From NCBI GenBank assembly GCA_032128375.1, contig JAQBGU010000191.1, forward strand, positions 1 through 18,288: a stretch of 18,288 nucleotides of DNA, read 5' to 3'. The DNA is from Deltaproteobacteria bacterium. GTDB lineage: Bacteria; Myxococcota_A; UBA9160; SMWR01. The position numbers and the translations under genes are program-made. The notes below the pieces were generated by a model. That model saw nothing but the letters and a program-made list of their open reading frames with translations. It did no database searches and had not been told where the DNA came from. The first letter of the stretch is position 1. Each line of letters starts with the position of its first letter. Below are positions 3,942 through 8,430 of this stretch, in pieces.

Positions 3942-4349
3942 ATGGCAACGGAACTCACCATAGGCGAGCTCGCCAACGCGGCGGGCGTGCCCACCTCGAC
4001 TGTTCGCTACTACGAGCGGGCCGGAATTCTCGCGCCGAGCGGGCGGAGTGCGGGGAACTACCGCGTCTATTCCGAGGCCGAACTCGAACGACTGCGGTTC
4101 ATCCGCGCAGCACAGGCCACTGGTTTCACGCTGGACGACATCAAGGCGCTTCTTCGGCCTGCAGCCTGCGGCAAGGTGCAGGGTCTTATCGAGGAACGCC
4201 TCGGCCAGGTTGCCGAGCGGATGTCCGAGCTGAGGCGCGTGCAGCGTGTTCTAAAGGGCGCTCTCGCCGAATGCCTCGAACACGAGGAGAGCGGGCGCTG
4301 CCGGGTCATCGAGACTCTAAGTGCCGCGGCCGGCCGTCGAACCTCCTAG
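3942..4349 (+). CDS. merR: Hg(II)-responsive MerR-family transcriptional regulator
   Basis: MerR HTH LTIGELANAAGV..STVRYYER.G...NYRVY and GFTLDDIK.LL. Its only three Cys (C76, C111, C120) have the same 35/9 spacing as C82/C117/C126 of Tn21/Tn501 MerR. It lies directly upstream of mer genes. Confidence 0.88.
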   Translation: MATELTIGELANAAGVPTSTVRYYERAGILAPSGRSAGNYRVYSEAELERLRFIRAAQATGFTLDDIKALLRPAACGKVQGLIEERLGQVAERMSELRRVQRVLKGALAECLEHEESGRCRVIETLSAAAGRRTS

Positions 4350-4611: not shown

Positions 4612-5256
4612 ATGGAGTTGATGAACAACGAACCCGAACCGAGCGGGCGATGGGCGACAGGTGGGGCGATTGCAGCCGCCGTGGTCGCGTCATCGTGCTG
4701 CATGCTTCCCCTCGTTTTTGGCGCCGCCGGAATTTCAACCGTTGCGCTAGCCGGCGCGTTTGAGTCCGCACGGCCCTACATGCTCGGCGTCACCATTGTC
4801 CTTCTCGGTCTGGGCTTCTACTACAACTACTTTCGAAAGGCTGCGTGCGAGCCTGGCGACGCGTGTAAGACCCCGCGCCCGGGCCTTCGACGCATGAATC
4901 GGACGATGCTCTGGCTCGCCACGGTGGCGGTCGTCGCGCTCGCGTTCTTTCCCTCCTACGCGTTCGTGTTCGCGGGTAGTGAAACCCCGGCGGTTTCCGG
5001 CGTTGAATCCATCGACTCCAAGCAGGTGGTTCTCGAAGTCAGCGGTATGACGTGCGAAGCCTGCACGGTGAGCGTGCAAAACGAGCTCGCCGCAGTCCCT
5101 GGGGTTCTTCGCTCCGAAGTCGACTTTCGAGCCGGGAAGGCGGTCGTCTTGTTTCAAGCTGACTCGGCTCCGAGCGCGAGCGATTTGCTGTCTGCGGTCA
5201 GCCGCGCTGGATACTCGGCAGTTGTCGCCTCTTCCGCTCGGGGAGCTGAGGGATGA
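4612..5256 (+). CDS. merT: Mercuric transporter MerT fused to a C-terminal HMA (MerP-like) domain
   Basis: ASSCCMLPLV in TM1, RPY, a cytoplasmic CEPGDAC pair, a third TM, then an HMA domain VSGMTCEAC...VPGV...AGY. The stop overlaps the merA start (ATGA). RBS GAGAGGA; ATG 4621 is an alternative start. Confidence 0.9.
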   Translation: MELMNNEPEPSGRWATGGAIAAAVVASSCCMLPLVFGAAGISTVALAGAFESARPYMLGVTIVLLGLGFYYNYFRKAACEPGDACKTPRPGLRRMNRTMLWLATVAVVALAFFPSYAFVFAGSETPAVSGVESIDSKQVVLEVSGMTCEACTVSVQNELAAVPGVLRSEVDFRAGKAVVLFQADSAPSASDLLSAVSRAGYSAVVASSARGAEG

Positions 5257-6686
5257 GCGATTGCTGTGCGAACGACCTGACGGACGAGCGGTCATTTGAC
5301 CTGGCCGTCATCGGTGGCGGCTCGGCAGCGTTCGCCGCGACGCTCCGCGCGACTGAACTCGGAGCCACCGTGCTTCTCGTAAACGAGGGCACGATTGGTG
5401 GCACCTGCGTGAACATCGGCTGTGTTCCCTCGAAGACGCTCATCCGAGCTGCCGAGAACTTCCACTGGAATCAGCTTTCTCGGTTTCGTGGGGTCAAACC
5501 GAGTCCTGGAAGCATCGACTTTCGGTTGCTGATGGAGGAGAAGAACGCACTCGTTGAGAGCCTTCGGACAGCCAAGTATGCAGACGTTCTCTCACGCCTC
5601 TCTGGTGTTCGCTTTCTAGAGGGCAAGGCGAAGCTCACCGGACGGAACGAATTGGAGGTGTCGGGGGAGCGCTTCGAGGCCGGGAAGATGGTCATTGCCA
5701 CCGGCACGCGACCCGTTTTTCCGGCCATCCCTGGACTCGCCGAGGCGGCTGTCTGGGACAGCACGCAGGCGCTCGATGCGCCGTTTCTTCCGGAGCGACT
5801 CATCGTGCTCGGGGGGAGTTATATCGCGCTCGAGCTCGGTCAGATGTTTTCTCGCCTGGGAAGCGAGGTCACGATTCTGCAGCGCAGTGCACATGTGCTC
5901 TCAGGAGAAGACCGCGACGTCGCAGAGGGTGTGACGCGGTTTCTCCGCGAAGAGGGAATCGAGATTCTTACCGGACAGAAGCTGCAGTCGGTCGAACGGC
6001 TGGGCGACGGTTTCGTAGTGGATGCAGCGGGAAACGCCGAGGTTGTCGCCCACAGCGCTGATGCCGTGGTATCAGCTCTTGGACGTCGTGCGAACACCGA
6101 AGCGCTCGAACTCGATGCCGGTGGCGTAGAACTCGACGCTCGCGGCTTCGTTCGCGTAGGCGACGACCTCGAGACGACTCAGGCGGGTATCTACGCCGCG
6201 GGCGACGTCCTGGGTGAGCCTGCCTTCGTCTACGCCGCAGCCTATGAGGGCTCACTTGCCGCCGAGAACGCACTCTTGGGAGAGGCTAAGAGGCGCGACT
6301 ACACAGCGATTCCGTGGGTGGTGTTCACGGACCCGCAGGTGTCCGGAGTGGGCCTCAGCGAGCGCCAGGCCGCCGAGTCCGGAATCGAGGTGGACGTCTC
6401 GGTGCTCCCCCTTGAACACGTTCCGCGGGCCGTCGCGGCGCGTGACACGCGAGGATTCGTAAAGCTGCTCCGTAAGAGCGGAACGGACCATCTGGTTGGT
6501 GCTCGGATTGTGGCTCCGGAAGGCTCAGAGCAGATAATGGAAGCGAGCTTGATGATTCGGTTCGGACTTCCTGTTTCCGAAGTCGCCAAGCACTTCCACC
6601 CCTATCTAACGCAAGGCGAAGCAATGAAGCTCGCCATGCTCTCCTTTGACACGGACGTGGAGTCTCTCTCGTGTTGCGCCGGCTAA
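5253..6686 (+). CDS. merA: Mercuric reductase without an N-terminal NmerA domain
   Basis: FDLAVIGGGSAAFAA, redox centre GGTCVNIGCVPSK, FVYAAA, VVFTDPQV, FHPYLT and the MerA-diagnostic C-terminal LSCCAG. Confidence 0.97.
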   Translation: MSDCCANDLTDERSFDLAVIGGGSAAFAATLRATELGATVLLVNEGTIGGTCVNIGCVPSKTLIRAAENFHWNQLSRFRGVKPSPGSIDFRLLMEEKNALVESLRTAKYADVLSRLSGVRFLEGKAKLTGRNELEVSGERFEAGKMVIATGTRPVFPAIPGLAEAAVWDSTQALDAPFLPERLIVLGGSYIALELGQMFSRLGSEVTILQRSAHVLSGEDRDVAEGVTRFLREEGIEILTGQKLQSVERLGDGFVVDAAGNAEVVAHSADAVVSALGRRANTEALELDAGGVELDARGFVRVGDDLETTQAGIYAAGDVLGEPAFVYAAAYEGSLAAENALLGEAKRRDYTAIPWVVFTDPQVSGVGLSERQAAESGIEVDVSVLPLEHVPRAVAARDTRGFVKLLRKSGTDHLVGARIVAPEGSEQIMEASLMIRFGLPVSEVAKHFHPYLTQGEAMKLAMLSFDTDVESLSCCAG

Positions 6687-6973
6687 TCCGCTCCGTCGCC
6701 GTCGTGCTGGTGCTGTCGCTCGGCGCGAACTCACACTCTGCGGATGCGTCCGATGCCCTTCAGACCTGGGTCTTTAGCGTCGAAGGCATGACGTGAGGCG
6801 GATGCGTCAAGTCGGTCCGTGAGGCCGCTCTGAGTGTTGAGGGCGTCACAGAAGCAGATGTGAGCTTGCGCGAGAAGACGGCGAGGGTCACGGCGCGAGA
6901 GGGAACGACGTGGGATGCGGTCAAGAGAGCTATCGAGTCGGCCGGATACCGCGCGGAGCTAGCGGATGAATGA
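6671..6973 (+). CDS. Exported MerP-like HMA-domain protein with in-frame TGA (predicted selenocysteine U42, UxxC motif); absent from the ORF track
   Basis: GGAG (6659-6662) precedes GTG 6671. Translation: MLRRLIRSVAVVLVLSLGANSHSADASDALQTWVFSVEGMT*GGCVKSVREAALSVEGVTEADVSLREKTARVTAREGTTWDAVKRAIESAGYRAELADE. TGA 6794-6796 occupies the first Cys of GMTCxxC. The N-terminus looks like a signal peptide. The start overlaps merA and the final stop overlaps merF. Confidence 0.88.
6801..6838 (+). promoter_or_regulatory. Candidate bacterial SECIS element for the MerP-like UGA
   Basis: Hand-folded. Upper stem CGGUC (6813-6817)/GGCCG (6823-6827), loop CGUGA (6818-6822), bulged U6812, AG/CU pairs, lower stem GAUGCGUCA (6801-6809)/UGAGUGUU (6831-6838). 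The loop begins 21 nt after the UGA. Confidence 0.7.
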
Positions 6974-7205
6974 ACGAAACCTGCTTGGAATCGGAATTAC
7001 TGGAACGATCGTTGCCGCGCTTTGCTGCTTCACGCCAGTTCTCGTGGTCTTGCTTGGCGCGGTCGGCCTGTCAGCGATTGTTGGGTGGCTCGACTACGTG
7101 CTGCTGCCTGCACTCGCGGCCTTCGTTGCACTGACGGTCCACGCCGTTACGCGGCGCCGGCGAGCGCTGGCGGCTTCTTCGTCAGCTGAGGTCGGGAGCG
7201 AATGA
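6966..7205 (+). CDS. merF: Mercury transport protein MerF
   Basis: GTIVAALCCFTPVLVVLLGAVGLSAIVGWLDYVLLPAL is a near-consensus MerF sequence. The stop overlaps the merB start (ATGA). Confidence 0.93.
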   Translation: MNERNLLGIGITGTIVAALCCFTPVLVVLLGAVGLSAIVGWLDYVLLPALAAFVALTVHAVTRRRRALAASSSAEVGSE

Positions 7206-7864
7206 CGCGGCTGCTAGACGCCGCGAAGAAGGCCTGGGCGAGCGAATACGCCGGGCTTTCGGAAGCGGAGATAGAGCAGCGCGTTCGAGGATTTGGCGCG
7301 ATGGTGATAGGCATTGCCGAAGACGGCGTGCTTTGTGTCGAGCGTTTCGCCGAACTCATGGGGCTCGAGACTGCGGTGGCAAGCAAGGTCTTTGCCGGGC
7401 TCTTCGCAGCTGGAATGCAGAAAGACGAGGCCGGAAACATTGTCGGCGCAGCCCTGACTGCGCGCGAAACGCCGCACAAGATTCGCGTGGCCGGTAAAGA
7501 ACTCTACGCCTGGTGCTCACTCGACGCGCTGTTCATCCCCGGGCTTCTCGGCGAAACGGCTGACATCGAATCGACGTGCCCGAGTAGCGGCGATGCGATT
7601 CGGCTAACCGTCTCGCCTGAGGCCGTGGGAAGAGCCGAGCCGTCCTCGACCTGGCTCTCTGTGTTTCTCCCGGGCGGCTCTTCGAGACAGCTAGGACCGG
7701 CGAGCCCGACGTGAAGCCAGATGCACTTTTTCCGCGCCCGGGAGGCGGCGGAGGAGTGGGTGGTGGGGCGAGCGGCAGTCGTAGCACTCAGCCTCGATGA
7801 GGCCTTCGAACTCGCCCAGGTGCATTGGGTGAATCGCGCCAAGCGGCTGCCTACACCACGATAG
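7202..7864 (+). CDS. merB: Organomercurial lyase MerB with in-frame TGA (predicted selenocysteine U171 at the catalytic Cys159-equivalent), 220 aa
   Basis: LYAWCSLDALFIP (C105/D108 = C96/D99 of R831 MerB) and ESTCPSSG (C117-equivalent). After TGA 7712-7714 the frame continues SQMHFFRAREAAEEWVVGRAAVVALSLDEAFELAQVHWVNRAKRLPTPR to TAG 7862-7864, matching the MerB C-terminus FC159CHVHFFAS...AEDW...VSVHEAFGLG. Confidence 0.92.
7724..7758 (+). promoter_or_regulatory. Candidate bacterial SECIS element for the merB UGA
   Basis: Hand-folded. CACUUUUUCCGCGCC (7724-7738) pairs with GGCGGCGGAGGAGUG (7744-7758) with one bulged U and one bulged G. Loop CGGGA (7739-7743) begins 24 nt after the UGA. Confidence 0.72.
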
Positions 7865-8010
7865 GTACTCCGCGCCGTTCCCGGAGCGGAGCCGGTCCGT
7901 TCCGGGCGCCTGAAGCCCTGAGGTCCACGGTGATCACACAAATGATCACCTGAAAACCGGCCATTGGGGCAGAAGTCGTCCGGGACATGGCGTGCAGTCG
8001 ATGCGGTTGG

Positions 8011-8330: not shown

Positions 8331-8430
8331 CGGATCGGGGTCTCGACCTCGGTGGAGCGTGGCGGGGCGTGGCGGGGCGTACTCCGAGGACTTCTGGCCG
8401 GATCGGGGTCTTGACCTCGGTGGAGCGTGG
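8331..8430. repeat. REP-like tandem repeat, right part: two partial ~68 bp units (8331-8386, 8387-8430)
   Basis: CGGATCGGGGTCT(C/T)GACCTCGGTGGAGCGTGG occurs at 8331 and 8399, 68 bp apart. Same unit as 3744-3813. Confidence 0.88.

Follow-up and report, generated by a model that had tools for sequence, protein, structure and literature searches.

The window analysed here is positions 1 to 18,288 of contig JAQBGU010000191.1 (18,288 nucleotides, nt) of the Deltaproteobacteria bacterium assembly GCA_032128375.1. It carries a mercury-resistance (mer) operon in which two genes, one for an HMA/MerP-like protein and one for the organomercurial lyase MerB, have frames with one interrupting TGA each. 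Both TGAs lie at the position of a functional cysteine and are followed by a small hairpin resembling a bacterial selenocysteine insertion sequence (SECIS), and the two hairpins share an apex despite standing in unrelated genes. The genes and hairpins in question, with U denoting selenocysteine (Sec), are as follows.

6671-6972, + strand: gene of the HMA/MerP-like selenoprotein, with a signal-peptide-like N terminus and the motif GMT-U-GGC (translation with TGA read as U)
6794-6796, + strand: Sec-UGA of the merP-like gene, in place of the first Cys codon in the CxxC metal site
6811-6829, + strand: candidate merP SECIS hairpin, with core stem 6813-6817 (CGGUC) paired with 6823-6827 (GGCCG) and loop CGUGA at 6818-6822
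6816-6852, + strand: rival merP hairpin with the 8-nt loop UGAGUGUU, the minimum-free-energy (MFE) structure, judged not to be the SECIS
7202-7864, + strand: merB, organomercurial lyase, with Sec at the Cys159-equivalent in PT-U-SQMHFF (translation)
7712-7714, + strand: Sec-UGA of merB, at the Cys159-equivalent
7732-7751, + strand: upper stem-loop of the candidate merB SECIS, with stem 7732-7738/7744-7751, bulged G at 7747 and loop CGGGA at 7739-7743
7724-7758, + strand: extended lower stem of merB, 7724-7730 paired with 7752-7758, present in the MFE structure

With TGA translated as U, the MerP-like protein reads ...VEGMT-U-GGCVKSVREAALSVEGV... and MerB reads ...GPASPT-U-SQMHFFRAREAAEEW.... 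The Pfam HMA match (residues 34-93) spans U42, which replaces the first Cys of GMTCxxC, and the Pfam MerB match (residues 85-206) spans U171, which is aligned to the Cys column of Cys-type MerB homologs. At the level of narrower families, the MerP-like protein matches the NCBIfam MerP and CopZ models only under their cut-offs, and MerB scores 140 bits on the canonical MerB model NF009710, under that model's 193-bit cut-off. The genome (6.2 Mb, 249 contigs, 62% G+C) encodes selA, a selB with both SECIS-binding wing domains, one tRNA-Sec gene (selC) and selD, and the selD gene itself contains a TGA. The two TGAs might instead be true stops or assembly errors, leaving truncated or split genes: both genes would be cut by open reading frame (ORF) callers, and the source is a draft metagenome-assembled genome in 249 contigs. 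However, the Pfam domains continue across both TGAs, each TGA falls exactly on the catalytic or metal-binding Cys column, and the codon is kept in three merP orthologs and 18 further distinct merB sequences from other assemblies, which makes this explanation scarcely credible. The comparison of these sequences would thus secure both UGAs as selenocysteine codons in metal-binding sites of a mercury-resistance operon. No description of these genes was found in the parts of the literature on selenocysteine with MerB and MerP that were available.

The two hairpins have the geometry that the original prediction described: pentaloops CGUGA and CGGGA, closed by a C-G pair and with G at the second loop position, lie 21 nt (merP) and 24 nt (merB) after the UGA. 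Their fit to the general bacterial SECIS (bSECIS) model was also borne out. As excerpted from PMC13188914, the model describes a loop of 3-9 nt on a stem of 4-16 base pairs (bp), a spacing of 16-37 nt, an energy of -7.5 kcal/mol or lower, and a G at one of the first two loop positions, with G or U as the usual next base. Both hairpins agree with it in loop, stem, spacing and loop G, lying in the coding region 3' of the UGA with a 5-nt loop in which G2 is followed by U or G. The merP stem has 5 bp in the window and 7 bp in the relatives G493 and G478 and in the paralog HMA2; its outer pairs 6811/6829 and 6812/6828 are complete in relatives only. The merB stem has 7 bp with one bulge. RNAfold, which the original prediction had proposed as a check, upheld only one of the two folds: the MFE structure contains the merB hairpin, whose upper part alone has an energy of -11.2 kcal/mol, within the -7.5 kcal/mol limit, and pair probabilities near 0.7, but the merP hairpin loses to the rival fold.

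For merB, homologs were collected from a scan of one genome per species (2 loci), from 401 genomes of the phylum, three of which besides the source carry the merB TGA, and from a metagenome scan, of which the best 80 of 534 relatives were taken. Compared over the 45 nt that follow the codon, the set comprises 19 distinct sequences of the Sec type and 29 of the Cys type. With the stem required to have 3 bp or more, 17 of the 19 distinct Sec forms show the hairpin and none of the 29 distinct Cys forms does. Of the two exceptions, L101 has the loop GGUGA and a stem mismatch, and the divergent L106 group, made up of identical copies, forms a 5-bp stem under a CGUGAA loop. RNAalifold on 21 distinct aligned Sec-MerB sequences returned the same upper hairpin, in which 85% of cells pair, compared with 39-58% when the partner column is slid, and its covariation score was reached by none of 500 shuffles. 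The third base pair (25-35) is G-C in 10 of the 21 sequences, U-A in 8, G-U in 1, U-G in 1 and unpaired in 1, and with the G-C to U-A compensation the peptide RAREAA becomes RSREDA. All 21 Sec-MerB sequences have U or G at loop position 3. The loop codon is CGT in 12, CGG in 6 and GGT in 1 of the Sec forms, so that the third base of the Arg codon is never C or A, whereas the loop Arg codon of the Cys forms uses all four third bases (CGC 5, CGT 3, CGA 3, CGG 3). The lower stem, 7 bp in the window, is poorly conserved: 13 of the 21 sequences lack pair 15-45, and 14 lack pair 18-42. An alternative merB hairpin, UUUUCCG-CGCC-CGGGAGG, was discarded, since a U at alignment column 30 breaks its pairing in 14 of 21 homologs.

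The choice between two hairpins in merP was approached in the same way. Among 401 genomes searched in the phylum and 193 in the order, three Sec orthologs that keep the TGA were found, in G493 (77% identity), G353 (62%) and G478 (57%). Together with the window and the paralog HMA2, which has the same hairpin offset and loop type, they give five sequences in which 33 of 35 cells of the small CGUGA hairpin are paired. Its two outer pairs change on both sides (G-C versus A-U, and A-U versus G-C), so that covariation, another of the checks proposed, is seen in both genes, in merP from few sequences. The longer hairpin at 6816-6852 has thermodynamics in its favour as the working merP SECIS, being the MFE structure at -17.6 versus -5.5 kcal/mol with a pair probability of about 1; it also has G at loop position 2 and a spacing of 34-35 nt, within the allowed 16-37 nt. 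In relatives, however, only 41 of its 60 cells are paired, 10 of its 12 pairs vary by breaking only, its loop G is followed by A rather than G or U, and HMA2 and nine other Sec genes use a CGUGN hairpin at matching offsets. We therefore consider the longer hairpin an improbable SECIS, and the small CGUGA hairpin is probably the merP SECIS within the overall reading given below.

The genome encodes another exported selenoprotein of the HMA/MerP-like type, HMA2 (G000:C237, locus L054:1-432, - strand). This protein has the motif GVV-U-GGTS and a single Sec, and lacks a second Cys; a CGUGC loop on a perfectly paired stem of 7 bp forms its SECIS. Among 86 related loci, no Sec-MerP was found beside a Sec-MerB, all HMA neighbours being Cys types, and on direct reading these Cys-type neighbours of Sec-MerB genes are without such a hairpin. 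For three HMA matches with a TGA, in G134, G156 and G136, the pattern search gave no GMxU-type site.

How general the shared apex is was judged on a reference set of Sec genes of the same genome, assembled without use of the motif. UGAs flanked on either side by coding sequence were picked out with a self-trained codon model, giving about 1000 candidates; a first codon-usage model, trained on long ORFs, did not flag the two mer UGAs and was replaced by iterative retraining. Sixty candidates picked by Cys context, paralogy or hairpin energy, with selD as the 61st, were tested against Pfam. A Pfam domain spans the UGA in 14 of the 61 (two AhpC/Prx-like, two thioredoxin-like, three DsbA-like and four CMD/AhpD-like genes, a rhodanese, a UGSC protein and the second HMA protein). 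Three PrdB-like genes were accepted through mutual paralogy across the UGA and selD through TIGR00476, and 43 of the 61 were unsupported. A BLAST search of the candidates against the genome's own ORFs for Cys paralogs gave three useful matches only. Counting GPx, MerP and MerB, the genome has at least 21 selenoprotein genes, a lower bound because about 940 UGA candidates lie outside the tested set. Their apical loops are listed here by type.

CGUGA: PrdB1, PrdB2, CMD3 and MerP
CGUGC: CMD2, rhodanese and HMA2
CGUGU: CMD1 and TrxL2
CGGGA: MerB
GGUC (GPx), GGUCU (TrxL1), GGUCC, GGUCCG, AGUU, AGUUA, UGGAU, GUU, GUG and GUC: the other 11 Sec genes

A hairpin of the form C-CGNGN-G, that is, a CGNGN loop closed by a C-G pair, thus follows the UGA by 17-24 nt in 10 of the 21 Sec genes. 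The same test, which takes hairpins of at least 4 bp located 15-30 nt downstream, is positive for 2671 of 1,225,105 in-frame codons (0.22%), for 30 of 13,036 Cys codons (0.23%) and for 3 of 1730 terminal TGAs of gene-like ORFs (0.17%), possibly including two known Sec genes. From the 1634 such hairpins in 12.4 million strand positions, 0.044 would be expected in 21 windows. The motif is thus more frequent after Sec-UGAs than in the controls, the comparison on which the earlier proposal had been staked, and none of the 29 Cys-MerB forms has it. The ten motif genes belong to six or seven unrelated families, therefore paralogy alone does not explain the recurrence.

Could the resemblance be coincidental, an Ala/Arg/Glu-rich helix at 62% G+C giving CGNGAGGC and hairpins without a role? 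The bare pattern is indeed common, with 250 matches genome-wide, the loop-codon Arg is conserved in Cys-MerB and Cys-rhodanese homologs, and the Cys-type rhodanese ortholog L205 (G248:C19) has, where the SECIS would stand, a GC-rich hairpin of 8 bp with the loop CGU. Against this stand the roughly 200-fold enrichment over coding controls, the lack of the hairpin in all 29 Cys-MerB sequences, the selection of rare codons, the compensatory changes that alter the protein and the occurrence of the motif in two reading frames. Coincidence is therefore strongly disfavoured, and we regard it as very improbable.

The reading frames indicate at which level the constraint acts. The merP and merB loops both read CGN-GAG-GCN-GCN in the same frame and encode the same peptide, R-E-A-A, exactly as the original prediction stated. 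Across the ten motif genes, however, two frames are used: the six genes with an offset of 21 or 24 nt read CGN-GNN, with an Arg codon in the loop, and the four with an offset of 17 or 20 nt read NCC-GUG-N, with Val in the loop. The third frame, xCG-UGA, in which CGUGA would create an in-frame UGA, is unused, all ten offsets being 0 or 2 modulo 3. The Arg codon of the six genes is CGU in five and CGG in one, compared with 11% CGU and 41% CGC among the Arg codons of the genome. The use of two reading frames and the choice of rare codons therefore place the constraint at the RNA level. The same construction gives A-R-A-A in HMA2, the rhodanese and one MerB homolog, and L-R-V-S in CMD1. R-E-A-A would arise where CGN-GAG and a GGC-rich 3' arm fall in frame 0 over a conserved Arg codon, and these comparisons indicate that the peptide is a by-product of the RNA signal. 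An RNA signal inside a coding region would in this way shape the protein, as in merB, where the change from Ala..Ala to Ser..Asp follows the change from a G-C to a U-A pair.

Several observations weigh against reading both hairpins as SECIS elements with a peptide by-product. RNAfold does not predict the merP hairpin, its pair probability being about 0 and that of the competing fold about 1; alone, with its 5 bp, it reaches -5.5 kcal/mol, weaker than the published -7.5 kcal/mol limit and thus a departure from the bSECIS model. The z-scores of the 60-nt folds are unremarkable (-1.64 and -1.54), and a search of Rfam with 6600-7900 gave no match at E values up to 10, which says little, because short bacterial SECIS hairpins carry little information. 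Comparative support for merP comes from five related sequences, and 53 of 500 shuffles equal its score. In the family surveys described below, the Sec site escaped the regular expressions in 11 of 30 CMD and 7 of 30 PrdB loci, and the sequences are related within each family, so the counts are not independent. Finally, Arg, and often Glu, stands at the merB loop position in Cys homologs as well, so that part of R-E is protein heritage. Two Cys-MerB sequences from metagenome contigs, L104 and L105, even keep RSREAAE and have lost the closing pair (UCG for UCC). The merB SECIS seems either to have been built on a pre-existing Arg codon, or Cys forms of the L104/L105 type descend from Sec forms; their peptide is either a SECIS relic after a change from Sec to Cys or the ancestral peptide underlying the SECIS.

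Taking these points into account, we assign a probability of roughly 80% to the reading that both hairpins are bacterial SECIS elements whose shared apex is a flavour preferred in this clade, with R-E-A-A as its by-product. In the mechanism that we propose, the C-terminal winged-helix domains of SelB would bind the stem-loop 17-24 nt downstream of the UGA, as expected from the SelB family, and SelB would deliver Sec-tRNA(Sec), so that each protein would receive selenocysteine at its mercury-binding site when the UGA is decoded. In no fewer than six unrelated protein families, the flavour would have arisen or persisted independently.

The same apex recurs among relatives, all of those surveyed being within the phylum. 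In CMD/AhpD-like genes, C-CG(U/G)GN-G hairpins at offset 24 with varying stems are present at 20 of 20 located Sec sites (19 of 30 fetched loci), and in PrdB-like genes C-CGUG(A/G/U)-G at offset 17 is present at 19 of 23 located sites (30 fetched loci), including two genomes from other families of the phylum. Two same-family orthologs of the rhodanese have the loops CGGGC and CGUGC with a compensatory C-G to U-A change in the stem, making three of three at the family level, and more distant rhodaneses have GUG, CGGGU or GGU loops. These surveys indicate that the CG(U/G)G flavour extends at least across the class and into other families of the phylum. Neither loop position 5 nor the GGC arm is conserved, as CGUGC, CGUGU and CGUGG loops and stems such as GUCU and GAGC illustrate.

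By our own reading, 18 of the 21 loops have complementary bases at positions 1 and 4 (C..G, or G..C in the GGUC type). Exchanges between CGUG and GGUC occur between the paralogs TrxL1 and TrxL2 and in the PrdB ortholog L272. The complementarity and the exchanges therefore suggest one architecture, a cross-loop pair around an extruded G-U, which would agree with the crystal structures of SelB-SECIS complexes.

The original prediction went further and saw in C-CGNGA-GGC a lineage-specific SelB recognition motif, so that the SelB of this lineage would have a code of its own that differs from the canonical code of bacteria. The CG(U/G)G apex in 10 of 21 genes of this genome and its dominance in the CMD, PrdB-like, rhodanese, MerB and MerP genes of relatives speak for such a code. 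However, the other 11 Sec genes use different loops, including GGUC in GPx and GGUCU in TrxL1. The GGUC-, AGUU(A)-, UGGAU- and GUU-type loops of these genes imply that SelB here does not require CGNGA and takes the classical apices as well. The motif also lies inside the general model as excerpted in print, the variable loop position 5 and GGC arm do not fit a fixed code, and the genome survey was confined to the phylum. A separate code is thus unlikely, and the motif as originally worded gives way to the consensus C-CG(U/G)GN-G, in which position 5 varies and position 3 is only U or G. This apex appears from the sequences to be the commonest flavour in the organism and its relatives, not a new kind of SECIS, and the accepted model of bacterial Sec insertion would be unchanged by it.

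The difference from the bSECIS model that concerns the clade as a whole is its strong preference for C at loop position 1 and G at position 4. It is tempting, if doubtful, to suppose that the preference of the clade's SelB for the cross-loop pair around the extruded G-U has shifted from G:C (GGUC) to C:G (CGUG). If so, the SECIS would repeatedly write Ala-Arg-Glu/Ala-Ala or Thr/Ala/Ser-Val-Ser into unrelated selenoproteins, a structural model tuned to the clade would find selenoproteins with high precision, and the clade would offer a natural test of which loop letters SelB reads. No printed statement of a CGUG-type clade preference was found in the accessible parts of the SECIS and SelB literature, and the literature search found no paper joining SECIS with Myxococc.

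The proposed use of the motif to find other selenoproteins of this organism proved limited. The bare scan TGA-N15-30-CCGNGAGG gives 250 matches, 99 of them with open frames, and was rejected as too common to inform. There are 555 hairpins with a CG(U/G)GN loop, and for 120 of them a TGA lies 14-31 nt upstream. A filter for positive coding scores on both sides reduces these to 14, namely the 10 known genes and four without Pfam support, and 11 of the 21 Sec genes are missed. The four additional candidates, C240, C97, C14 and C126, were set aside, having no Pfam domain across the TGA. A rule for the clade, a C-CG(U/G)GN-G hairpin 17-24 nt past an in-frame UGA with coding sequence on both sides, would thus return ten true genes and four unsupported ones.

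The two hairpins can be compared with the best-known bacterial SECIS elements. The apical loop of Escherichia coli fdhF is of the GGUC type. With fdhF, the elements described here share the G-U dinucleotide and a small apical loop about 20 nt after the UGA, which is bound by SelB in fdhF, and in this genome GPx combines a GGUC loop with a UGCA/UGCA stem. They differ in having C..G instead of G..C flanks and, in merB, G-G for G-U; their 5' arm lacks a bulged U, and merB has a bulged G in the 3' arm. In fdhF, G23, U24 and the bulged U17 are essential and conserved, as stated in the excerpt of PMC8659212. Compared with Moorella thermoacetica fdhA, the resemblance lies in the C-G-closed pentaloop with G-U at positions 2-3, and the difference in loop positions 1 and 4. 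The fdhA loop reads GGUCU, and TrxL1 of this genome has C-GGUCU-G. According to the available part of PMC4605307, the fdhA SECIS has been co-crystallised with the winged-helix domains 3-4 of SelB (PDB 1WSU), a SECIS stem comprises 6-8 bp, and its conserved G lies about 20 nt past the UGA.

A MerB-like selenoprotein has been described before: SaoL, with a CU motif (NCBIfam NF040728; Haft and Gwadz, 10.1101/2022.07.06.499078, consulted in part). Both SaoL, as far as that part goes, and the MerB of the window are MerB-fold selenoproteins with a database truncation at the UGA about 50 residues before the C terminus. Unlike SaoL, the MerB of the window scores 27 bits on the SaoL model (cut-off 140), has the motif T-U-S with U on the first Cys column, and is encoded in a merR-merTP-merA-merP-merF-merB operon. 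The remaining genes of this operon are the following.

3942-4349, + strand: merR
4612-5256, + strand: merT-HMA fusion
5253-6686, + strand: merA (TIGR02053, 519 bits, exceeding the cut-off)
6966-7205, + strand: merF, membrane mercury transporter (Pfam Transport_MerF; NCBIfam trans_MerF, 101.5 bits versus a cut-off of 50)

The merF gene separates the two selenoprotein genes. L213 (G493:C1:415134-418445), from another family of the same order, carries this merA-merP(U)-merF-merB(U) block too, with identities of 88% for MerA, 74% for MerP, 71% for MerF and 73% for MerB, a UGA in both merP and merB, and the loop CGUGA after each. On the codon model of the genome, the mer genes of the window have lower scores than typical genes. 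The merA-merP-merF-merB block may be horizontally mobile.

Two further observations concern other sequences. In the source genome, 80%-identical copies of an integrase with an IS91-type transposase (G000:C98, L026, and G000:C80, L059) both have an in-frame TGA between the domains, which may reflect either two adjacent genes in one frame or a recoding site. Downstream of merB, at 8360-8379 of the window, the 10-mer TGGCGGGGCG stands in direct tandem duplication.

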